DNA from: Verrucomicrobiota bacterium | Lineage (GTDB): Bacteria > Verrucomicrobiota > Verrucomicrobiia > Limisphaerales > JADJPG01 | DNA length: 64,000 nt | Direction of reading: 5' to 3' | Assembly: GCA_046048995.1 (NCBI GenBank) | Contig: JBJOEZ010000009.1 | Location: forward strand, 169,535 to 233,534 | In this document: positions 15,322-55,011 of the stretch, one piece after another | Numbering within the stretch: the stretch's first letter is position 1 | Layout of the letters: every line of letters begins with the position of its first letter | The notes under the pieces: generated by a model | What the model was told of the DNA's origin: nothing | Databases searched by the model: none | Seen by the model: only the letters and a program-made list of their open reading frames with translations | Program-made: the position numbers and the translations under genes

Positions 15322-16848
15322 TCAGCCCCAAATCTCCCGGTCCAACGCACGAAACTGGATGGCCTCCGCAATGTGCTCCGCCCCCACCCGCTCCACCCCG
15401 CCCAGATCGGCTATGGTCCGCGCCACGCGCAGGATGCGGTCATACGCCCGCGCGCTCAGGTTCCGATCCGTCATCGCCGCCTTCAACAACTCCAGCGTCG
15501 GCGCGTCCAGCGCACAAAACTCCTTCAATTCCCGGGGGCCCATGCGCGCGTTGCAGGCCAGGCGCAGCCGCCCCGCATGGCGTCCCTGCTGCCGGCGCCG
15601 GGCTTCCATCACCCGGGCCCGAATCTGCCCGCTGGTCTCCCCCGCCCGCGCCGAGGTCATGTCCCGAAACGATACCGCCGGGACCTCAATGTGCAGGTCA
15701 ATCCGGTCCAGCAGGGGCCCCGAGACGCGCCCCAGGTAGCTTTGGATCTCCCGCGGGCTCGACTTGCTTTCATGCGGCATCTTGCCGTCGGGCGTCGGGT
15801 TCATCGCCGCCACCAGCATGAACTGGGCGGGAAAGGTCACCGTCCCCGCCGCCCGGCTGATGGTCACCCGCCCCTCCTCCAGCGGCTGGCGCAGGGTCTC
15901 CAGCACGCTGCGCTTGAACTCCGGCAACTCGTCCAGGAACAACACGCCATGGTGCGCCAGCGAGATCTCCCCCGGGGTCGGGTTCACGTTGCCCCCCAGC
16001 AGGCCCGCGTCGCTGGCCGTATGGTGCGGCGACCGGAACGGCCGGGCCGTCACCAGCGCCTGCCCGGAGCGCAGCAACCCGACAATGCTGTGCACCTTGG
16101 TGGTCTCCAGCGCCTCCTCCACCGTGAGCGGCGGCAGGATGGTCGCCAGGCGCCGCGCCAACATCGACTTGCCCGTCCCCGGCGGGCCAACCAACAACAC
16201 GTTGTGCCCCCCCGCCGCGGCAATTTCCAGGGCGCGCTTGACCGATTCCTGCCCGCGCACCTCGGCAAAGTCGCAGTCCGCCTCGTCCACCGGGCCAAAC
16301 AGCGACGCCACATCCACCGTGGTCGGTTTCAGCGTCAACTGTCCCTCGAGGAACGAGGCCGCCTCCCGGAGATTGCGCACCCCATACACCCGCAGTCCCT
16401 CGACCACCGCCGCCTCCGCCGCATTCTCCGCCGGCACCAGCAACACCCGCCGCCCGTCCGCCCGGGCCCGCAGCGCCATCGACAACACCCCCTTGACCGG
16501 CCGCACCGCCCCCGTCAACGCCAGTTCCCCGGCCATGACCACCTCGTCCAACCGGTCGGTCTCGATTTGCTCGCTGGCCGCCAGCAGGGCCAGCGCAATC
16601 GGCAGGTCAAAGCTCGGCCCCTCCTTCTTCACGTCCGCCGGGGCCAGGTTGATCGTGGTGCGGCCCAGCGGCACCGTGAACCCAGAGTTGGACACCGCCG
16701 TGCTCACCCGGTCCCGCGACTCCCGCACCGCCGCGTCCGGCAACCCCACCACCACCATCACGCTGTCCCCAAAGCCGGAGTTGACCTCCACCTCGACCCC
16801 ATAGGCCTCGATGCCCTGCACCGCCGCGGAAAATGCCCTCGCCAACAC
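15322..16848 (-). CDS. comM: YifB/ComM-family Mg-chelatase-like AAA+ ATPase
   Basis: GTG start. The N-terminal Lon-like domain reads GIEAYGVEVEVN..GLPDAAVRESRDRV..NLAPADVKKEGPSFDLPIALALL. The Walker A motif is LLVGPPGTGKSMLA. GVLFLDELPEF is also present. Confidence 0.92.
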   Translation of the reverse strand: MLARAFSAAVQGIEAYGVEVEVNSGFGDSVMVVVGLPDAAVRESRDRVSTAVSNSGFTVPLGRTTINLAPADVKKEGPSFDLPIALALLAASEQIETDRLDEVVMAGELALTGAVRPVKGVLSMALRARADGRRVLLVPAENAAEAAVVEGLRVYGVRNLREAASFLEGQLTLKPTTVDVASLFGPVDEADCDFAEVRGQESVKRALEIAAAGGHNVLLVGPPGTGKSMLARRLATILPPLTVEEALETTKVHSIVGLLRSGQALVTARPFRSPHHTASDAGLLGGNVNPTPGEISLAHHGVLFLDELPEFKRSVLETLRQPLEEGRVTISRAAGTVTFPAQFMLVAAMNPTPDGKMPHESKSSPREIQSYLGRVSGPLLDRIDLHIEVPAVSFRDMTSARAGETSGQIRARVMEARRRQQGRHAGRLRLACNARMGPRELKEFCALDAPTLELLKAAMTDRNLSARAYDRILRVARTIADLGGVERVGAEHIAEAIQFRALDREIWG

Positions 16849-16970
16849 GGCGCCAAGGCTAGGCAGGCGCCCGCCCCGCCTTCAAATGGGAAAGGTCAAT
16901 AAAAGCGGCGCCTCCCCTGTCCGGATCGGGGCCCGGCGGCCATTGGTGGCCGCGCCGGGCGGCCCCGGCC

Positions 16971-44949: not shown

Positions 44950-46905
44950 TCAGCGCACGGCGGCCAGCAGGCGGGGCAGCAGGTCGGCGATGCGGATGCG
45001 TTCCTGGCGGCCGTCGTCGCGATGCCGGAGGGTGACAGTGTCCAGCAACTCGGGCTTTTCGCCCAGGGTGTCGAAGTCGATGGTCACGCCGAACGGCGTG
45101 CCGGCTTCGTCCTGCCGGGCGTAGCGGCGCCCGATGCTGCCGGCCTCGTCGTAGAACACGTTGAGATGGGGGCGGAGCAACTCGCGCACCTCGAGCGCCT
45201 TTTTCACCAACTCCGGCTTGTTCTTGAGCAGGGGGAAGACCGCGGCCTTGATGGGGGCCACCCGCGGATGGAACCGCATGAGGACCCGCGTCTCGCTCTT
45301 GCCCTTCTCGTCGGTGTCCGTGATCTCGTGGTAGGCGTTGCAGATGAGGGACAGGATGAGGCGATCGACCCCGGCGGACGGCTCGATCACATGCGGGACA
45401 TACTGGCCCTTGGCCAGGCCGTCGGCGTCCTCCTTGGCCTGGGCGGCGGCGCGATCGGCGGGCACCCCCATCTTGGCGAGGTACTTGAGCCGGTTGTCGT
45501 GGTAACGGCGCGAGAGATCCGCCTTGCGGGTGTCGTCGAGCTTCCCCCAGGCGGCGCGGAGATCCTCGTCAAACACGCCCATGGGCTTGCCGGAAAAGCG
45601 GGCATGCTGGGACAGGTCAAAGTCGCTGCGGGCGGCGATGCCCTCCAGTTCCTCGCCCACGTAGTTGCCCTGCGCATCCTTCTTGCTGAAGGGAAACTTG
45701 AAGAGGATGTCGACGCAGGCCCGGGCGTAGTGGGCCAGTTCCTCGGCGGTCTGGCGATGGAACCCAAGGGTCTGGCGCGAAAGCCCGATGCCCTCGTAGA
45801 AGCGGACGCGTTCCTCGACCCAATACTGGTGCCAGGCCTGCCACCCCCAGTTGGGCTGGGGTTCCCCCGGATGACCGGTCTCGGGCACGGTGGCCACGCT
45901 GCCATGGATGGCCTCGATGGCCTCGTCCGGCTTGATGAAGAACTCGAGTTCCATCTGCTCGAACTCGCGGGAGCGGAAGGTGAAGTTGCGGGGCGTCACC
46001 TCGTTGCGGAAGGCCTTGCCGACCTGGGCGATGCCGAAGGGCACCTTTTGGCGCGAGGTTTCCAGCACGTTCTTGAACTGGGCGAAGATGGCCTGCGCCG
46101 TCTCGGGCCGCAGGTAGGCCACGTTGTCCTCGTCGGCCACCGGGCCCACGTAGGTCTTGAACATCAGGTTGAACGGGCGGGGCGCCGTCAGTTCCGCGCC
46201 GTTCTCCGGGTTGAAGCGGGTCGTCCCCTGCACCGCCTCCCGACGCTCCAGGATCAAATGCGGGTTCTCCATCCCCCGCTGCCGGTAAAACTGCGCCGCC
46301 GTCTTGCGCGCCTGCGCCTCCTCATGCTTGCTCTCCTCCACCAGCACGGAAAACCGCTGCACATCCAGCCGCGGCTGGCTGGCGGGGTCCACGCCGGACT
46401 CCGGCAGGGCCAGCGGATGCTCCCGCAGCACCTGCTCCAGCGCCCGGCGCACGTCCACGGGCGAACCCGCCGCCGCCACGGACTGGAACCGCGCCTTCCC
46501 CTGCACCGCCCCGGCAAAGGCATCCACCCGCGCGTCATCCTGGAAGGCCCCCGCGAAGTGATACACGACCCCCGACTGGGGCTCGATCTGGTCGGCCCGG
46601 AACCGCTTGCGCGTCAGCAGGCAGTCGCACATCGGATCGCTGAAGGTGTCCACGTGACCGCTGGCCCGCCAGATCTGCGGGTGCATGATGATGGTGGCCT
46701 CCAGGCCCACCACGTCGTCGCGCAGCCGGGTCATGGTCGTCCACCACAACTCCTTCACGTTGCGCTTCAACTCGGCACCCAGCGGACCGTAGTCCCAGAA
46801 CCCGTTGATCCCCCCGTAAATATCAGACGACTGGAAGACAAACCCCCGCCGCTTGCACAGCGAGACAATCTTTTCCATCAACACGTTTTCCTTCGGCTCA
46901 GCCAT
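44950..46905 (-). CDS. glyQS: Glycine--tRNA ligase (homodimeric class II type) with large insertions
   Basis: MEKIVSLCKRRGFVFQSSDIYGGINGFWDYGPLG, FNLMFKT, FRNEVTPRNFTFRSREFEQMELEFF and PHVIEPSAGVDR are present. The product is 651 aa (alternative ATG at 46878). Confidence 0.9.
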   Translation of the reverse strand: MAEPKENVLMEKIVSLCKRRGFVFQSSDIYGGINGFWDYGPLGAELKRNVKELWWTTMTRLRDDVVGLEATIIMHPQIWRASGHVDTFSDPMCDCLLTRKRFRADQIEPQSGVVYHFAGAFQDDARVDAFAGAVQGKARFQSVAAAGSPVDVRRALEQVLREHPLALPESGVDPASQPRLDVQRFSVLVEESKHEEAQARKTAAQFYRQRGMENPHLILERREAVQGTTRFNPENGAELTAPRPFNLMFKTYVGPVADEDNVAYLRPETAQAIFAQFKNVLETSRQKVPFGIAQVGKAFRNEVTPRNFTFRSREFEQMELEFFIKPDEAIEAIHGSVATVPETGHPGEPQPNWGWQAWHQYWVEERVRFYEGIGLSRQTLGFHRQTAEELAHYARACVDILFKFPFSKKDAQGNYVGEELEGIAARSDFDLSQHARFSGKPMGVFDEDLRAAWGKLDDTRKADLSRRYHDNRLKYLAKMGVPADRAAAQAKEDADGLAKGQYVPHVIEPSAGVDRLILSLICNAYHEITDTDEKGKSETRVLMRFHPRVAPIKAAVFPLLKNKPELVKKALEVRELLRPHLNVFYDEAGSIGRRYARQDEAGTPFGVTIDFDTLGEKPELLDTVTLRHRDDGRQERIRIADLLPRLLAAVR

Positions 46906-47006
46906 AGGTCAAATCAGGGGCGGCAGTCTTCGGGATGAGGTGGGGCAAGTCAAGGCAGGCCGGGCCGGCGGGCCCGGCCGCCCGCCCATGTGCGCACCAC
47001 GACGCT

Positions 47007-47729
47007 TCAGCGCGGGCCGGGGGACGCCGGCTGTTCCCGCGCCTCGCGCCAGGCCCGTTCCAGCACGGGGCGAATCCGCGCCGCAAACTCCACATAGGCG
47101 GCCGGCCGCAGGTGCAACCGATCCTCCACATACAGCTCCAAACGGGGCTCGCCGGCGGCGTCAAAGAGGGCCGGGTTCACGTCGATGAAGGCGTGCCGGG
47201 GCGTCGCGGCACAGTAATCGCGCACCAGGCCGTTGTAGCGGTCCACGCGATCCCACCGTTCCCGGCGATCCGGCGACCGCGTGCTGCTCACAAACAGCAG
47301 GTGCGTGGCCGGCATCTCCCGCTGCACCCGGCGCGAAAACTCCCGGAACCGCTCGAAGATGGCCTGGGGATCGTTCCCGGCCTTGAGGTCGTTGCTGCCG
47401 CAGTAATAGACAATCACCCGCGGGGCGCACGGCGTCACCACCTGGGCAAAGCGGTCCAGCTGATCTCCCGTGCGCGAGCCCCCAAAGGCCCGGTTCCGCA
47501 CCGGCAGCGGCGCCATCATGTCCGCCACATTCGTCCACAACCGGAAGATGCTGCTGCCGACAAACAGGATCTCACCGGGCGCCGGCGGACGGACGCGATC
47601 CGCCTCGCGCATGGCCTGGATGTCCGCCTCAAAGCGGGGAACCGCCGGGCTGCCGGCAGGGGCCGCCGCCAGGCGAAACGCCACGAGCAGGAGCGGGAGG
47701 GCGGCGAGGGAAATCAGGCGGGCAATCAT
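47007..47729 (-). CDS. Secreted SGNH/GDSL-like esterase
   Basis: The signal is MIARLISLAALPLLLVAFRLAAA. ILFVGSSIFRLW (Ser block), FGGSRTGD and YCGSNDL are present. Confidence 0.7.
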   Translation of the reverse strand: MIARLISLAALPLLLVAFRLAAAPAGSPAVPRFEADIQAMREADRVRPPAPGEILFVGSSIFRLWTNVADMMAPLPVRNRAFGGSRTGDQLDRFAQVVTPCAPRVIVYYCGSNDLKAGNDPQAIFERFREFSRRVQREMPATHLLFVSSTRSPDRRERWDRVDRYNGLVRDYCAATPRHAFIDVNPALFDAAGEPRLELYVEDRLHLRPAAYVEFAARIRPVLERAWREAREQPASPGPR

Positions 47730-47784
47730 GGCGTGGAAAAGGCGGGGCGGGCGGGGCAGGCTCCGGTCGGCGGCGGCAGGCGGT

Positions 47785-48498
47785 TCAGCCCAGCGTCAAC
47801 TCGCGGTAGCGCACGGCCCCCGGCCGGGCACGATCGAGGAGGGCGGCCTCCACGTTGCGGCCTGGCAGCGTGACGGGCGGCACCGGTGGCACCGCCAGGT
47901 CGGCCAGGGGGGTGCCCTCCTGCAGGGCCTGCCAGGCGAGCAGGCAGAGGCCGGCGACGTGCCGGAGGGATTGGGTGGGCTGCACTTGCCCGCGCAACCA
48001 GGCCGCGGCCTCCTCCTCGCGCTTGGGATCCACATGAGCCACGACCAGCCCACCGACCTCGTAGTGGTGATGGCCGTCGTAGCGCACCCGCACCAGCAGA
48101 TCGGACGCCGGGCTCTCGCCCAGCTCGGCCCAGACGGATTCCACGATGCTGGGCGGGGAGAAGATTTGCTCGAAGCTGGCCTTGAGGGCGGGGCTGAGGG
48201 CGAAGCTGATCAGCCGCCGCAGGGTGACGTCGGCGGGCGAGCGCTGGAATCCCTCGAGGTGGGCGGCCTCGATGGCGGACTGACGGAGTTTCTCGATGTC
48301 AACCGGATGGCCGAGGGCGGCGCAGGCGTGGCGGTCGTAAATCTCGAAGACCTTGGAGCGGCCGAGGCCGACCCCGAGCAACAGGATGCCCTCCGGGCGG
48401 GAGACGGCGAAGACGGGCGTGCCGCCGCGCAGCTGCTCGCGGATGTATTCGCGCCGGTTGGCGATGGCTTCCAACCAGCGATAGGGCTCTTCAGTCAT
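47785..48498 (-). CDS. prcA: Bacterial 20S proteasome alpha subunit
   Basis: It is collinear with my memory of M. tuberculosis PrcA: KVFEIYDRHACAALG vs KISELYDRVGFAAAG, and the C-terminal VEAALLDRARPGAVRYRELT vs LEVAVLDANRPRRAFRRIT. It lies directly downstream of prcB. Confidence 0.8.
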   Translation of the reverse strand: MTEEPYRWLEAIANRREYIREQLRGGTPVFAVSRPEGILLLGVGLGRSKVFEIYDRHACAALGHPVDIEKLRQSAIEAAHLEGFQRSPADVTLRRLISFALSPALKASFEQIFSPPSIVESVWAELGESPASDLLVRVRYDGHHHYEVGGLVVAHVDPKREEEAAAWLRGQVQPTQSLRHVAGLCLLAWQALQEGTPLADLAVPPVPPVTLPGRNVEAALLDRARPGAVRYRELTLG

Positions 48499-48520
48499 GG
48501 GAGGCCTTGGGGGATTGGGC

Positions 48521-49282
48521 TCAGCCCTGGGCGTCGCGCCAGAAGGCGGCCTGTTCCTCGGTGCTGACGCCGCGGATGCCGGCGGCGGAGAGGAGCTTGA
48601 GGGTGGCGAAGATGCCGCGGTCGGGCTGCACCCCGCCGGTGGCGGTGTCGAACTCGGCGGCGGTGAGGAGCAGGCGGTTGGCCAGGTTGCTGGCCTGGCG
48701 AAGGCTCATGGCGGACGGGCGGGGTTCCCCCCACTTCTCGAGGAAGCTGAGGATGCTCTTGATGCTGCCGCTCCCGGAACCGCTCCCGGCGAAGTTGACC
48801 GCCTCGAACTGGGCGCCGAGGGGGTCATAGAAGTGGATCTGCGGGCGGGCGGCGGGATCGCCGGCCTCGACCCCGGCGAAGATGGGGGCGACGACGCCGA
48901 AACCCTGCAGGGTGCCGGGCAGGTTGTTGCGCAGGAGCTGGGACAGGGCCCGGATCTTGGCCGGCAGGCTCAGGGGCTGCAACTGGCTGCGCCGGTAGAA
49001 CTCGAAGCTGGTCTGCAGGGTGCGCGCCATCTCGAAGGCGGTGGCCGGGACGCCGGCGATGGCCATGAGCGAATGGGAGTCGAGCTCGAGGATTTTCTCG
49101 GTCTGATCGGAGAACACCACGTTGCCGGCGGTGGCCCGGTGGTCGCCGGCGATGACGACGCCCTCCGCGCAATGGAAGGCAAAGACGGTGGTGGCGTGCA
49201 GCGGCTCGACCGCCAGTCCGCCCGCCCCGGCCGGGGCCGGCGCGGCGGGCTTCGGGAGCAGGGCCAGGAAATCGCCGTTCAT
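48521..49282 (-). CDS. prcB: Bacterial 20S proteasome beta subunit (Thr1 protease) with a 30-residue propeptide
   Basis: The propeptide junction reads ..VEPLHA|TTVFAFHCAEGVVIAGDHRATAGNVVFSDQTEK. Thr1, Asp17 and Lys33 sit at the same spacing as in Mtb PrcB ([21 protein letters not shown]..RK). GSGS and DSATGG-like (DTATGG) blocks are present. Confidence 0.88.
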   Translation of the reverse strand: MNGDFLALLPKPAAPAPAGAGGLAVEPLHATTVFAFHCAEGVVIAGDHRATAGNVVFSDQTEKILELDSHSLMAIAGVPATAFEMARTLQTSFEFYRRSQLQPLSLPAKIRALSQLLRNNLPGTLQGFGVVAPIFAGVEAGDPAARPQIHFYDPLGAQFEAVNFAGSGSGSGSIKSILSFLEKWGEPRPSAMSLRQASNLANRLLLTAAEFDTATGGVQPDRGIFATLKLLSAAGIRGVSTEEQAAFWRDAQG

Positions 49283-49455
49283 TGGCCGGTGCGCTGGCGG
49301 TAACGCTTGGCCTGATCCGGGTCCACCCGGCGCATCTTCTTCAGCAACTCCTCCGTGTTCGGCTTCTGCACCTGGGGGGCCCGCGGGCCCTCGCCACCGC
49401 CCCCTCCGCCGGGAGCCGGGGTCATCGGGACGGGTTTGCGAATGGGGTCTGGCAT
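49279..49455 (-). CDS. Pup/UBact-like prokaryotic ubiquitin-like tag (58 aa; 62 aa from TTG 49467)
   Basis: The sequence is MPDPIRKPVPMTPAPGGGGGGEGPRAPQVQKPNTEELLKKMRRVDPDQAKRYRQRTGQ*. The N-terminal half is low-complexity and the C-terminal half helical and basic. It ends in terminal Gly-Gln. Its stop overlaps the prcB ATG (ATGA). It sits between the dop-like gene and prcB. Confidence 0.75.
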   Translation of the reverse strand: MPDPIRKPVPMTPAPGGGGGGEGPRAPQVQKPNTEELLKKMRRVDPDQAKRYRQRTGQ

Positions 49456-49478
49456 AACAAGGGGCAATGGTCCGTTAT

Positions 49479-50999
49479 TTACCGTCGCTTGGCAAATCCC
49501 AGCTGGGCCAATTCCTCCACCTCCCGGGCGGCCTGGATGACCCGCAGGGCCTCCTCAATCTGGCCGGGATCAAAGAGGCCGCGCAAGTCGAGCTCGAGGG
49601 TCATGGAGCGGCCCCGCAGGCGCAGGTAATCCCACTGGGCCGCCTCCACCTGCGGCCCGAATTTCTCAATGCACCGCCCCCGCACCGCCGCCCGGGTCGA
49701 AAGCGGCGGAGCCAGGGCGGCCCCGCCCAGTTCCGCCCCTCCATACGGCAACCGGAAGGCCTGCTGGTCCAGCAGGGCGTAAAAGAGGCCCTCCTCCCGG
49801 TCCAGCCGATGGTAGGCCAGGTCCAGGCTGCGCAGCCAGGGGTCCTCCGGGCCCAGCCCTTCCGCCTCCCGGAATTGCTCCACGCACCGATGCTTGGCAC
49901 ACCAATCCAGCCGGTCGGCACAGGACAACGGTTCCCGCTCCAGGTCGCCCAACACCTCCTCCCACCCCGCCGCCACCGCCTGCCAGTCCGGGCCCAGCCC
50001 CGGACAGAACTCGCGCACCAAGGCGAGGTAACCCCGCTGGACCTCCAGCGCGGTGGTGGCCCGGCCGGCCGCGTCACGGCAGGCCCAGCGCCAGGTGCGA
50101 TCGCGCGACAACGCGCGCAGGGTGCCCACCGGGTCCGCCACCTGCGGCACCCGCGCCAACGGGCAGCCATTGACCAGCGCCTGCAGCACCAGCGCCGTCG
50201 TGCCCACCTTCAGCCAGTTCGCATAGGGGGACAGGTTGGCGTCGCCCACAATGACATGGAACCGCCGGTAGCGGGCCGGATCCGCGTGCGGCTCGTCCCG
50301 CGTGTTGATGAGCGGCCGGCTCTGCATCGTGTCCACGCTCTCCAGTTCCGAGAAGAAGTCCGCGCGCTGCGACACCTGGAATCCCGGCCTGACAAAGCGG
50401 TCCTCCTCCTCCCAGCCATACTTGCCCGCCCCCGCATACACCTGCCGCGTGGCCAGGAAGGCCGCCATGGCCGCGGCCAGCGTGTCCCAGGGCAGGCGGC
50501 GCGGCAGCAGGTAGTTCTCGTGGCAGCCGTAGCTGTGCCCGGCAAAGTCCGTGTTGTTCTTGTAGAGCAGCACCGGGTTGGCCGACCCCTCGTTGAGCGC
50601 CCGGGCGCACTCCATCACCAGGCGGTCGCCCGCCCGGTCCTGCTGCAGGAGCTCCAGCAGCGTGCCGCATTCCGGCGTGCAATACTCCGGGTGCGCGTGG
50701 TCATTGTAAAACCGCGCGCCGTTGCGCAGGGCCACGTCGCTCTTGATCTCCGTGAAGGACAACGGCCGCGCGGCGTCCTGCGCGAAATAGTCCGCCTCGT
50801 CGGTGTCCTGGCGCAACGCCGCCACCCGGAACCCCCGCGCGTCACGGTGCGGATCCTCGCACGAGTAATCCCACCGCATCCGCACCCCGGGCGCGGTCAC
50901 GCTGCGCACCAGGGCAATCGACTCCGCCACCACGTCCAACCCCGCCGGGTCGGCCCGCGTGATGCCCATCTCGGTCTCAAGGCCAAATTGTATGTCCAT
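49479..50999 (-). CDS. dop: Pup-ligase-superfamily enzyme, Dop (deamidase/depupylase) type
   Basis: ATG 50999 lies inside track ORF 49479..51098 (MDIQFGLETEMG). NGARFYNDHAHPEYCTPEC, YKNNTDFAGHSYGCHENYL and INTRDEPHADPARYRRFHVIVGDANL are present. An ~45-residue insertion with RMRWDYSCEDPHRDARGF matches the Dop loop (Mtb Dop RTRWDYEVESPLRDARGF), which is absent in PafA. Confidence 0.8.
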   Translation of the reverse strand: MDIQFGLETEMGITRADPAGLDVVAESIALVRSVTAPGVRMRWDYSCEDPHRDARGFRVAALRQDTDEADYFAQDAARPLSFTEIKSDVALRNGARFYNDHAHPEYCTPECGTLLELLQQDRAGDRLVMECARALNEGSANPVLLYKNNTDFAGHSYGCHENYLLPRRLPWDTLAAAMAAFLATRQVYAGAGKYGWEEEDRFVRPGFQVSQRADFFSELESVDTMQSRPLINTRDEPHADPARYRRFHVIVGDANLSPYANWLKVGTTALVLQALVNGCPLARVPQVADPVGTLRALSRDRTWRWACRDAAGRATTALEVQRGYLALVREFCPGLGPDWQAVAAGWEEVLGDLEREPLSCADRLDWCAKHRCVEQFREAEGLGPEDPWLRSLDLAYHRLDREEGLFYALLDQQAFRLPYGGAELGGAALAPPLSTRAAVRGRCIEKFGPQVEAAQWDYLRLRGRSMTLELDLRGLFDPGQIEEALRVIQAAREVEELAQLGFAKRR

Positions 51000-51169
51000 G
51001 CCGCGCGGGGCCGGCCCCGCCACCTGCTGTTCTACGCGGCCCCGGGAGCCCGGGCAAGCCGCGGAACGCCCCGCCCGGGATGCCGCGCAGTTTTCCATTG
51101 GCCTTTGCCCGGCGGATGTTCACTCTGCCCGGGTTGTTCGCCGCCCCCGCGGGCTTGCCCGCGCTTGCT

Positions 51170-53377
51170 ATGAGCCAACCGCCCCTGACCCAGACAGAAC
51201 TCACCGAACTCATCGCCGGCCTGAACCGGCTCGCCCGCAACCTCTGGTGGACGTGGAACCAGGAAGCGCAGGAAATCTTCCAGGAACTCTCCCCCCGCGG
51301 CTGGCAGAACCTCTACCACAACGCCGTCGCCATCCTGCACGAGGTGTCCGACGCTGAACTCCGCGTGCACCTGCAGGACCCGGACTTCTCCGCCCGTGTC
51401 CGCCGGGTGCTCGCCGCCTTCGAGGCCTACCTCTCGGACACCAACACCTGGGGCCGCCAGCACGCCTCCACCCTGCTCGGCAACCCCGTCGCCTATTTCA
51501 GCGCCGAGTTCGGCTTCCACGAAACCCTGCCCATCGCCGCCGGCGGCCTCGGCATCCTCGCCGGCGACCACGCCAAGTCGGCCAGCGACCTGGGCATCGG
51601 CTTCGTCGGCATCAGCCTGTTCTACCGCGAGGGCTACTTCCAGCAGTCCATCAACGCCGAGAACTGGCAGGTCGACTACTACACCCAGCTGCACCCCGAG
51701 AACCTGCCCCTCGAGCCCGTCCTCGACCGCCAGGGCCAGCCAGTCGTCGGCTCGGTCCCCATCGGCACCACCGAGGTCCGCTTCCGCGCCTGGCGCATCA
51801 ACGTCGGCCGCAACCCCGTCTACCTGCTCGACACCAACCTGCCCGAGAACGAGCAGCACTACCGCGACCTCACCTTGCGCGTCTACGGCGGCGACAGCAC
51901 CACCCGCATCATGCAGGAGGTCGTCCTCGGCGTGGGCGGCGTCCGCCTCCTCCGCGCCCTCGGCGTGCGCCCCTCCGTCTACCACATGAACGAGGGCCAC
52001 GCCGCCTTCCTCGCCCTCGAGCTGACCCGCGAACGACTGGCCACCGGCAAGTCCCTGCCCGATGCCCTCGCCGGCACCCGCGCCGAATGCCTCTTCACCA
52101 CCCATACCCCCGTCGAGGCCGGCCATGACCGCTTCTCCCCGGGCCTGATGGACTTCGCCCTCAAGGATTACCTGGCCCAGTTCCCCGTTCCCCACCACGA
52201 ACTCCTCGCCCTGGGCCGCGTCCACCCCGAAAACGCCGAGGAACCCTTCTGCATGACCGTCCTCGCCCTCAAGGCCAGCCGCGCCGCCAACGGGGTGAGC
52301 GAACTCCACGGCCGCGTCAGCCGCGAGATGTGGCGCGGCCTCTGGCCCGGCCTGCCCGTCGACCAGATCCCCATCGGGCACATCACCAACGGCATCCACC
52401 TGCTCGGCTGGATGAAGGGCACCGTGCGCCGGTTCTGGCGCCGCAAGCTGGGCGGCGTCGCCAACGGCGGCGCCCCCCGCCCCGCCGCCGGACGGGACAC
52501 GGACTTCTGGCAGACCCTCGGCGGCTCCCGCTGGGAATGCGCCGTCAACGCCCAGGAGTTCTGGGATCGCATGGCCGACCCCGGCTTCCTCAGCGACGAG
52601 GAACTCTGGGCCCTCCGCTACAAGCTCCGCCGCGAACTCATCGAGTTCGCCCGGCGCCGCCTCCTCCTCCAGTCCCAGCGCGTCGCCCAGTCGGAGTTCA
52701 TCGTCTTCGACCGCTTCCTCAACCCCGACGCCCTCACCATCGGGTTCGCCCGGCGCTTTGCCACCTACAAGCGCGCCCCCCTCATCTTCCAGCAGTTCGA
52801 CAACATCGTCCGCCTCGCCCACGACCGCCAACGCCCCGTCCAGTTCATCTTCGCCGGCAAGGCCCATCCGCGCGATGACGAGGGCAAGCGCTTCATCCAG
52901 CACATCATCCACCTCAGCAAATACAGCGACCTCAAGGGACACCTCGTCTTCCTCGAGAATTACGACGTCCATGTCGCCCGCCAGATGGTCAGCGGCTGCG
53001 ATGTGTGGCTGAACAACCCCCGCCGACCCCTCGAGGCCAGCGGCACCAGCGGCCAAAAGGCCGGCTGCCACGGCTGCCTCAACCTCTCCATCCTCGACGG
53101 CTGGTGGCGCGAGGGCTACGACGGCACCAACGGCTTCGCCATCGGCGACGATTCCCATCCCGAAAACATCGAGGAACAGGACCGTCGCGACAGCGAAAAC
53201 CTCTACCGCGCCCTCACCGAACAGGTCATCCCCGAGTTCTTCGAGCGCGATAGCGGCGGGGTCCCCCGCCGCTGGCTCCAGCGCATCCGCCGCGCCATGG
53301 TCACCCTCGTCCCCCAATACAGCACCTGGCGCATGGTCCAGGAATACACCCGGAACTACTACCTCCGGAGCAGTTAG
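51170..53377 (+). CDS. glgP: Alpha-glucan phosphorylase (GT35, GlgP/MalP family)
   Basis: ATG 51170 lies inside track ORF 51080..53377 (MSQPPLTQTELTELI). AYFSAEFGFHETLPIAAGGLGILAGDHAKSASDLG, EASGTSGQKA and NGFAIG are present. Confidence 0.9.
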   Translation: MSQPPLTQTELTELIAGLNRLARNLWWTWNQEAQEIFQELSPRGWQNLYHNAVAILHEVSDAELRVHLQDPDFSARVRRVLAAFEAYLSDTNTWGRQHASTLLGNPVAYFSAEFGFHETLPIAAGGLGILAGDHAKSASDLGIGFVGISLFYREGYFQQSINAENWQVDYYTQLHPENLPLEPVLDRQGQPVVGSVPIGTTEVRFRAWRINVGRNPVYLLDTNLPENEQHYRDLTLRVYGGDSTTRIMQEVVLGVGGVRLLRALGVRPSVYHMNEGHAAFLALELTRERLATGKSLPDALAGTRAECLFTTHTPVEAGHDRFSPGLMDFALKDYLAQFPVPHHELLALGRVHPENAEEPFCMTVLALKASRAANGVSELHGRVSREMWRGLWPGLPVDQIPIGHITNGIHLLGWMKGTVRRFWRRKLGGVANGGAPRPAAGRDTDFWQTLGGSRWECAVNAQEFWDRMADPGFLSDEELWALRYKLRRELIEFARRRLLLQSQRVAQSEFIVFDRFLNPDALTIGFARRFATYKRAPLIFQQFDNIVRLAHDRQRPVQFIFAGKAHPRDDEGKRFIQHIIHLSKYSDLKGHLVFLENYDVHVARQMVSGCDVWLNNPRRPLEASGTSGQKAGCHGCLNLSILDGWWREGYDGTNGFAIGDDSHPENIEEQDRRDSENLYRALTEQVIPEFFERDSGGVPRRWLQRIRRAMVTLVPQYSTWRMVQEYTRNYYLRSS

Positions 53378-53380
53378 CGG

Positions 53381-53479
53381 GTGAACGAGTTCATGGGTGA
53401 GCGGTTTGAGTGATCGAGTGGGCGGCGCGCGCGCGCCCCGCCTGACTCGTTAACTCATCAGCCCATCGACTCGTTAACT
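53381..53479. repeat. Nested imperfect palindrome carrying four copies of GT(G/T)A(A/T)CGAGT; probable bidirectional terminator or REP-like element
   Basis: Plus-strand copies are GTGAACGAGT (53381-53390) and GTGATCGAGT (53410-53419). Minus-strand copies are GTTAACGAGT (the complement of 53445-53454 and of 53469-53478). The centre is (CG)n at 53426-53435. The 12-mer gactcgttaact is repeated exactly (53444-53455 and 53468-53479). The outer right arm lies inside the last 7 codons of the NtrC-like gene. Confidence 0.6.
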
Positions 53480-54915
53480 TCAGCGTCTTTCCAGCCGTAC
53501 TCGGTCAGCTTGTTGCGCAGGGTGCGCACGCTGATGTCGAGGGCGCGGGCGGCGTGGGTGCGGTTGTTGCCGAACTTCTCAATGGCGGCGAGGATGTGCT
53601 GTTTCTCCACCTCGGCCAGCGTGAGGGCATCGCCGGCGGGCGTGGCCGCCGCCGGGCGCGCGGCGGCCGCGGCGGCCGCGGGGGTTGCGGCGGACGGGCT
53701 GAGGCCGGCATGGGCACCCGGATGCGCGCCTGGATGGGCGCCACCGAGGGTGTCGCGGCCGAGCCCGAAGTGCTCCGGTTCGAGGAGGGTGCTGTCCCCG
53801 GACAGGATGACGGCGCGCTCGAGGACGTTCTGGAGTTCGCGGACGTTGCCGGGCCAGGAGTGGGCGGTGAGGGCCTGGACGGCGGCCGGGCTGAGGCCGC
53901 GGACGTTGGAGCCGTGCTTGCGGGCGAAGCGGCGGCAGAACTGCTCGGCGAGCACGGGGATGTCCTCGCGGTGTTCCCGGAGCGCGGGCACGATGATGGG
54001 GACGACGTTGAGGCGGTAGAAGAGATCCTGGCGGAACTCCTGGCGTTCCACGCTCTGCTCGAGGGTGCGGTTGGTGGTGGCGATGACGCGGACATCGACC
54101 TTGATGGTGCGGTTGCCGCCGACGCGCTCGAACTCGCGTTCCTGGAGGACGCGCAGGAGCTTGGCCTGCAGCTTGGGGGCGACCTCGCTGACCTCGTCGA
54201 GCAGGAGGGTGCCGCCGTGGGCCAGTTCGAAGCGGCCCTCCCGCTTGGTCATGGCGTTGGTGAAGGCGCCCTTTTCATGCCCGAAGAACTCGCTCTCGAT
54301 CAGGCTTTCCGGGACGGCGGCGCAGTTGATCTTGATGAAGGGGGCGGTGGCCCGCGGGCTCTGGCGGTAGAGGGCCCGGGCGACGAGTTCCTTGCCGGTG
54401 CCGCTTTCCCCCTGGATCAGCACGGTGGCCTGGGTGCGGCCCACCTTGCGGATGAGGTCCCGGAGCGCCTCCATGGCCGGGCTGACCCCGATGATTTCGC
54501 ACTCGTCGTCGTCCCCCTGGCTGAGGTGCTGCGAGACCCGCACCAACTGCGAATGCTCGTCGGCCTTCTTGAGCGTGACCGCGAGGTGCTCGCTGGAGAT
54601 GGGCTTGGTCAGGAAGGTGAAGGCCCCGTTGCTCATGCATTCCACCGCCATGTCGACGGTGCCATGGCTGGAGATCATGACCACGAGCGGGCGGGACGGG
54701 CGGGCGTTGAGCTGCTTGAGCAGCTCGATGCCATCGCCGTCCGGCAGCTTCACATCGACGATCATGAGGTCGAAGTTGTCCTTGCCGAGGAGTTCCAGGG
54801 CGCCCGCAATGGTGCCCGAGGAGGCGACATCGTAACGGCGGTAACGCAGCTGTTGCTCGAGGGTTTTGCGTACAACCAGGTCGTCCTCGAGGATGATGAT
54901 CTTTTCGATGGGCAT
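53458..54915 (-). CDS. Sigma-54-dependent response regulator (NtrC family: REC + AAA+ + Fis-type HTH)
   Basis: ATG 54915 ([12 protein letters not shown]) is preceded by AGGTGG 5 nt upstream. The REC phospho-site reads [27 protein letters not shown] and [12 protein letters not shown] (GAFTGA-type loop) are present. The C-terminal HTH is [20 protein letters not shown]. Confidence 0.9.
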
Positions 54916-55011
54916 GCCAACCACCTTGCTACCCGAACCGCAGGCCTGTGGAAAGCGGGAAAACGACGGAATCCCGGTGCCCGGGGCGCGGCGACGGCCC
55001 GGCCGCGGCCC

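Follow-up and report, generated by a model that had tools for sequence, protein, structure and literature searches.

A core dop-UBact-prcB-prcA operon with mpa and pafA not adjacent in an uncultured, high-GC member of the Verrucomicrobiota

A 64,000-nt stretch of contig JBJOEZ010000009.1 (the window), from the metagenome-assembled genome (MAG) of a Verrucomicrobiota bacterium (GCA_046048995.1), carries a compact locus for a UBact-type protein tagging system and a 20S proteasome. Four intact minus-strand genes lie within positions 47785-50999, in the order dop, UBact tag, prcB and prcA. The first (49479-50999) encodes a 506-aa Dop-like protein of the Pup-ligase superfamily, which starts with MDIQFGLETEMG and appears to be an orthologue of the deamidase/depupylase Dop. 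After 23 nt follows the gene of a 58-aa UBact tag (49279-49455; MPDPIRKPVPMTPAPGGGGGGEGPRAPQVQKPNTEELLKKMRRVDPDQAKRYRQRTGQ), which ends in RYRQRTGQ. The start of prcB (48521-49282; a 253-aa 20S proteasome beta subunit with a 30-residue propeptide) overlaps the stop codon of the tag gene by 4 nt (ATGA), and prcA (47785-48498; a divergent 20S proteasome alpha subunit of 237 aa) begins 22 nt after prcB. An earlier note, made from the letters of this DNA alone, had described four same-strand genes with gaps of 22-23 nt or a 4-nt overlap, and the coordinates of the open reading frames (ORFs) agree with it.

A longer dop ORF of 539 aa was rejected because the orthologues start at MDIQFG; they are likewise 506 aa long and have a start identical to that in the window. 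A 62-aa version of the tag, read from a TTG start, was also rejected because orthologous tags start at MPDP. The database records of the two genes are shorter. The NCBI record begins Dop 10 codons late, at Met11 (496 aa), and so cuts into the GhExE motif (50970-50999). The gene call of the Joint Genome Institute (JGI) covers the last 30 codons of UBact only, and no exact copy of the 58-aa tag is present in the collection of proteins searched.

The 506-aa enzyme scored 464.6 bits against Pfam Pup_ligase, and profile searches gave 411.2 bits with the NCBIfam Dop model vs 320.1 bits with the PafA model. The Dop score is under the equivalog cutoff of TIGR03688 (492.3), by a distance from the model that orthologues from complete UBact loci share. 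Among sequences of solved structures, the Dop of A. cellulolyticus (4B0R) matched with 324 bits and that of M. tuberculosis with 310 bits; whereas the PafA of C. glutamicum (4B0T) reached 208 bits, in an alignment that begins only at residue 70. The Dop loop, defined as a ~37-residue insertion after the first strand (Hecht et al. 2020, PMC7947786), is present and conserved: RMRWDYSCEDPHRDARGF (with RWDYSCEDPHRDARGF) aligns with RWDFEEENPLRDARGF of the A. cellulolyticus enzyme, and also with M. tuberculosis Dop, as the earlier note had proposed. The same note had put the shortfall of PafA in this region at ~45 residues, which was too high; the ExE strand and NGAR are ~80 residues apart in the window enzyme, ~35-37 more than in PafA.

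The residues near the catalytic Asp were compared at the Dop/PafA-discriminating positions in Table 1 of Hecht et al. 2020 (PMC7947786), mapped via structure-sequence alignment. S27, V31, H101, A102 and P109 of the enzyme are Dop-type, the catalytic Asp100 is kept, and the PafA-specific Val insertion beside it is missing. N99, C107 and A90 are of neither type. When the alpha-loop FFSELESVDTMQSRP is set against FFEVEVGLETTLKRP of A. cellulolyticus, no more than some of the positions match either enzyme, Dop or PafA, so that the loop is not clearly of one type or the other; this alpha-loop is common to the UBact-type Dop clade. In a neighbour-joining (NJ) tree of 59 Dop and PafA sequences, the window enzyme was placed inside the clade of verrucomicrobial Dops from complete loci, far from the UBact-type PafA clade. 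Profile scores, structure sequences, Dop loop, residues near the catalytic Asp and tree all indicate that the 506-aa enzyme is orthologous to Dop, and the proposed assignment to the Dop type instead of the PafA type stands.

The midpoint-rooted NJ tree also groups Pup-type PafA with Pup-type Dop, and shows UBact-type PafA as a separate deep clade. As the tree was made by a quick distance method, rooting or long branches may have produced this grouping as an artefact; a true grouping would bear on the assumption that Dop and PafA go back to one ancient duplication.

The small gene lies between dop and prcB, the position that the tag gene has in four verrucomicrobial relatives with complete loci (L001 and L003-L005). 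Its product is above the cutoffs of both curated UBact models, with 81.8 bits for NF033388 (cutoff 35) and 80.8 bits for PF20513 (cutoff 27.8), and is 84 % identical to the tag of L003. The basic C-terminal helix region (...LLKKMRRVDPDQAKRYRQRTGQ) ends in R-[TS]-G-[QE] and is conserved in an alignment to 20 tags of Verrucomicrobiota, Nitrospirota, Poribacteria, Armatimonadota, Nitrospinota and others. The ...RYRQR[TS]G[QE] terminus is common to six phyla. A scan of 80 loci for small post-dop ORFs ending in G-[QE] revealed two sharply distinct tag families, a Pup type with the pattern ...LLDEIDxVLEENAEEFVxxYVQKGG[QE] and a UBact type with the pattern ...LLKRMRKVDPxQAxRYRQR[TS]G[QE]. By these features the window tag is a typical UBact. 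Verrucomicrobial tags are mostly Gln-ended, including that of the window, and the tags of Nitrospira are mostly Glu-ended. The reading of the small ORF as a UBact-type, Gln-terminated tag is borne out by both model scores and by the terminus kept among the aligned tags.

The two families also differ in charge. The last 28 residues of the window tag have a net charge of +5, and among tags from 28 loci the value is ~+5 for UBact vs ~-7.6 for Pup. Since the UBact tail is basic and the Pup tail acidic, the surfaces with which the partner enzymes bind them would have to differ, which predicts charge-inverted recognition surfaces between the UBact and Pup systems that are structurally testable on Dop, PafA and Mpa. 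A further kind of tag was seen in two Chloroflexota chromosomes (L060:11509-11736 and L066:11416-11736), where dop, a small ORF ending in ...IIREVPDPTPQPGGE and pafA occur together. This tag is unlike Pup and UBact, and the proteasome and mpa genes were not found within 10 kb of it.

The beta subunit scored 131.9 bits with TIGR03690, under the equivalog cutoff of 191.9, and 86.1 bits with the Pfam Proteasome model. Thr31, Asp47 and Lys63 reproduce the Thr1/Asp17/Lys33 spacing. The best matches in the Protein Data Bank (PDB) are the beta subunits of Rhodococcus and M. tuberculosis, whose mature chains align from exactly residue 31; both residues and alignment accord with the predicted catalytic spacing after a 30-residue propeptide. 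PrcA scored 69.3 bits with TIGR03691 (cutoff 139.05) and has no Pfam match. Its only PDB matches are the alpha subunits of Rhodococcus and M. tuberculosis (E = 6e-9 to 1e-6), which together with synteny agree with the proposal that a bacterial alpha subunit follows. Compared with L003, PrcB is 79 % identical and PrcA is 70 % identical to the syntenic gene product. By their scores both subunits are divergent from the actinobacterial ones.

The poor scores of the alpha subunit against curated models, together with the absence of mpa and pafA in cis, might be taken as signs of a decaying remnant, in which the partners were lost and the four genes are drifting to pseudogenes. However, the prcA genes of three complete loci (L001, L003 and L004) are also without a Pfam match, or have a weak one, so weak alpha scores are common to orthologues in complete loci. 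The catalytic residues are present. Moreover, of 194 positions without variation in 26 orthologues, only two are changed in the window Dop (Q220E and L372C), and the other sequences show 0-10 deviations. The 192 positions kept, the four intact reading frames and their retained translational coupling argue against decay, which we regard as extremely improbable, and also against a change of Dop function.

The partners of these genes were searched for throughout the window. In tblastn searches of all 64 kb with two Mpa and two PafA queries from two verrucomicrobial loci, only the paralogous match of PafA to dop was obtained, and no remnant was found. The absence covers 13 kb on the dop side and 47 kb on the prcA side. 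Another 30 ORFs of the window, annotated with Pfam, comprised housekeeping genes and no more than two AAA+ proteins. These two, one ComM/Mg-chelatase-like (15322-16881) and the other an NtrC-type activator/response regulator (53458-55011), were considered as substitute unfoldases; both were rejected because they have the architecture of unrelated families. Both searches bear out the initial statement that no Mpa and no second paralogue are encoded in the 64 kb.

On the plus strand, a glgP-like phosphorylase gene (51170-53377) diverges from dop. The intergenic region between them is 170 nt long (51000-51169) and is the site of mpa in relatives. The operon promoter presumably lies in this region; a sigma-70-like consensus was not found in 51000-51169, which is uninformative at 70 % GC (guanine plus cytosine), and a consensus scan of 46800-51400 for promoters and terminators gave nothing that exceeds shuffled expectation. 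The GC content is ~70 % throughout the window. On the other side of the operon are the minus-strand genes of an SGNH/GDSL esterase (47007-47729) and of glycyl-tRNA synthetase (glyQS, 44950-46905), so that annotation confirms the flanks first noted. A spacer of 55 nt (47730-47784) separates the prcA stop from the esterase start; pafA follows here in relatives, and a population breakpoint lies at 47741/47740. The NCBI records of the window proteins carry locus tags from RJA22_1194 onward (RJA22_1194-1197), and MFM1768665, MFM1768666 and MFM1768668 are exact matches; the contig measures 250,719 bp.

Gene order in relatives was surveyed in at least 600 rows of a Dop-centred genome scan, among which the genome of the window did not appear. 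The first Dop search returned ~8,000 homologues, of which the best 120 were 65-71 % identical besides the 100 % match of the query to itself. The closest relatives among the matches listed are L003, L004 and L005 (70-71 % Dop identity) and L001 (68 %), and all have the order mpa-dop-UBact-prcB-prcA-pafA. The canonical order, which the earlier note had given with the tag in third place, is thus found in the nearest relatives. Since these carry the complete six-gene locus, the compact form is derived within the lineage of the window, as a lineage-specific rearrangement.

The compact layout is less special than had been suggested, as the order around the core varies widely. For example, mpa is absent within 10 kb in two Verrucomicrobiales loci (L006 and L007), and pafA is absent in cis in L017 and L032. 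Three loci of Fimbriimonadales (L033, L036 and L037) have the identical core-only dop-UBact-prcB-prcA cluster. The UBact-type pafA can also be detached from the proteasome genes, as in L088:2-3763 (also L087 and L089; Logan contigs of ~65 % GC), where an AAA+ gene only 30 % identical to Mpa is followed by a TPR gene, pafA and then ridA. The second paralogue can also be up to ~4 kb from prcA, as several actinobacterial loci show. Iyer et al. 2008 (PMC2588565) described Pup as having both paralogues beside it in every lineage known at the time; the larger sample now available shows many exceptions to this neighbourhood rule.

Loci with dop alone or with mpa-dop (L008, L010-L016, L023, L040 and L046) occur in Chthoniobacterales and in one Limisphaerales genome, and in them tblastn and a scan for ORFs ending in G-[QE] found no tag and no adjoining proteasome genes. 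Two records with verrucomicrobial-type UBact loci and a Dop 57-59 % identical to that of the window are titled 'MAG: Chitinophaga pinensis' (L009) and 'MAG: Klebsiella pneumoniae' (L032), and these titles look mislabelled. The verrucomicrobial Mpa proteins (L001:8112-9731 and L003:4962-6554) end in ...GSGPSI or ...ESGTI. The Mpa of M. tuberculosis has a GQYL-type tail, and docking to the 20S particle may differ.

The gene order of the window could in principle result from an assembly or binning artefact, a chimeric join in the MAG, with pafA after prcA in the real genome. Two contigs favour this. The contig L085 of JGI metagenome 3300043449 corresponds to window 47741-53250 at 99.95 % identity and tracks it to 44 nt past the prcA stop; after a C/T single-nucleotide polymorphism in the spacer, its last 20 nt (L085:5511-5530, GTATACCAGCCCAGAGTTCC) are unrelated to the window. 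The Logan contig L002 (SRR35180140; window 47759-53137, 99.96 %) ends just short of the point of divergence. The 20-nt tail had no match in the metagenome contigs, the window or any fetched locus, and a degenerate pattern for the prcA C-terminus found nothing in the metagenome contigs. However, the 1661-bp contig L092 of the same metagenome follows window 46224-47884 at 100 % from the 3' end of prcA through the spacer and the SGNH gene to the beginning of glyQS, and the glgP/dop junction is present in both L002 and L085 at >=99.95 %. Both junctions therefore exist outside the MAG, in independent short-read contigs. Since L085 diverges where L092 follows the window, a second haplotype with a different continuation coexists in the sample, and the L085 tail represents a co-occurring variant and not an error of the window. 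An artefact is therefore very unlikely. Judging by its breakpoint, which coincides with the pafA position of the relatives, L085 seems to stem from a second haplotype or a structural variant.

The search for a PafA of this genome was extended to protein databases. One query was a single PafA sequence and the other a profile built from ten high-GC PafAs, the most GARP-rich ones, and the candidates were screened by NCBI name, accession and amino-acid composition. No PafA attributable to the MAG was obtained among the best 120 of either search. This is a weak negative, as both lists end at ~70 % identity and a PafA ~65-70 % identical to the queries, as diverged as the Dop of this lineage, would fall below. 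Several candidates were rejected: P0176 (MEY2409504) belongs to another MAG, the high-GC PafA contigs P0222 and P0243 are from other samples, and L086 carries a prcA fragment only 51 % identical to the prcA of the window.

With mpa, pafA and their remnants absent from the 64 kb and no PafA among these matches, the Dop-like enzyme might be the only Pup-ligase-family protein of the organism, PafA and/or Mpa having been lost. The enzyme would then be a bifunctional deamidase/depupylase and ligase, or the 20S particle would work with another activator or without tagging. Some published observations favour such a system. Phyla such as Verrucomicrobia and Armatimonadetes are reported to have homologues of 'one or both' of the two proteins, single-copy PafA/Dop-like genes occur in Planctomycetes, and 20 substitutions convert Dop to a ligase (Hecht et al. 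2020, PMC7947786). The conservation of the core-only cluster across three Fimbriimonadales genomes would also be odd for a transient rearrangement. On the other hand, the conserved positions do not set the window Dop apart from orthologues that are accompanied by a PafA of their own, and the Dop loop and the Dop-type residues beside the catalytic Asp are present. Wild-type Dop showed no ligase activity in M. smegmatis, and absence from 64 kb says little for a multi-megabase genome. We therefore consider it unlikely that a Dop-like enzyme is the sole member of its family here. The fuller form of this idea, a minimal UBact system in this organism and perhaps in parallel in Fimbriimonadales, in which the sole Dop-like enzyme activates and ligates the tag or a non-Mpa activator serves the 20S particle, is doubtful to the same degree.

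Together the four genes probably constitute the core operon with which an uncultured Verrucomicrobiota member of 70 % GC tags proteins by UBact and degrades them, with pafA and mpa at a location that we infer to be elsewhere in the genome. The homology assignments of the four genes, on which this rests, are drawn from sequence comparison. By homology with actinobacterial Pup, the Dop orthologue would deamidate the C-terminal Gln of UBact to Glu, and a PafA-type ligase would link the gamma-carboxylate of this Glu to substrate lysines. An Mpa-type AAA+ ring would recognise the tag and feed the substrate into the PrcA/PrcB 20S particle, in which removal of the 30-residue propeptide would expose the Thr1 active site; and the Dop orthologue may also strip UBact from tagged proteins. 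A Gln-ended tag would be useful only if deamidation is followed by ligation, as in the Pup paradigm, which suggests that pafA and mpa are encoded elsewhere. A rearrangement has probably separated the two genes from the core in this lineage, and both most probably lie outside the 64-kb window. The split loci (L006, L007, L017, L032, L033, L036 and L037) and the detached pafA of L088 are precedents for partners apart from the core. Two points weigh against this interpretation: the searches for the MAG's own PafA yielded no attributable sequence, weak as that negative is; and no biochemical study of any UBact system was found in the searchable literature, so that the mechanism is wholly transferred from Pup.

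The locus extends a described but biochemically untested tagging system to a further uncultured genome, and shows that in some lineages the six genes of UBact loci no longer lie together. If the whole genome turned out to be without PafA and Mpa, it would be a natural test of a Dop-type enzyme as ligase, which has been achieved only by engineering (Hecht et al. 2020). Such a genome would likewise put to the test the ability of bacterial 20S proteasomes to work without the canonical unfoldase.

Among the known systems, the UBact loci of Gram-negative phyla are the closest. Pup-like conjugation outside Actinobacteria, Verrucomicrobia included, was predicted by Iyer et al. 2008 (PMC2588565). Curated models of the tag exist in Pfam (PF20513) and NCBIfam (NF033388), and the databases hold thousands of homologues; the earlier remark that UBact loci are rarely annotated no longer holds. 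UBact itself was reportedly described and named in Gram-negative phyla by Lehmann, Udasin, Livneh and Ciechanover in 2017 (BBRC 483:946), reportedly with Verrucomicrobiota among the phyla named for the system. The window shares with these loci the tag family, the ...RYRQRTG[QE] terminus and the position of the tag between dop and prcB, followed by prcA. It differs from the six-gene locus of its nearest relatives in that mpa and pafA are not adjacent.

The actinobacterial Pup system, with M. tuberculosis as the paradigm (mpa, dop, pup, prcB, prcA and pafA), is more distant. It has the same enzyme superfamily, with the Dop loop, the GhExE motif and the context of the catalytic Asp, and the same 20S architecture and core gene order; its tag is likewise G-Q-ended and needs deamidation. 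However, Pup tags are not alignable with UBact beyond the terminus, and their C-terminal 28 residues are oppositely charged. The UBact-type Dop and PafA form clades of their own in the NJ tree. The window Dop, beta and alpha subunits also score under the NCBIfam equivalog cutoffs; we take these models to represent actinobacterial sequences, and the scores to reflect distance from those. The three Fimbriimonadales loci (Armatimonadota) are identical to the window locus in layout, with the same four genes, mpa and pafA absent in flanks of 5-10 kb, and tags that end in Q or E. They belong to another phylum, and their Dop is only ~43 % identical to that of the window; the core-only arrangement arose independently there. 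The window locus is thus of the already described UBact type, with a rearranged gene order for which there are precedents.

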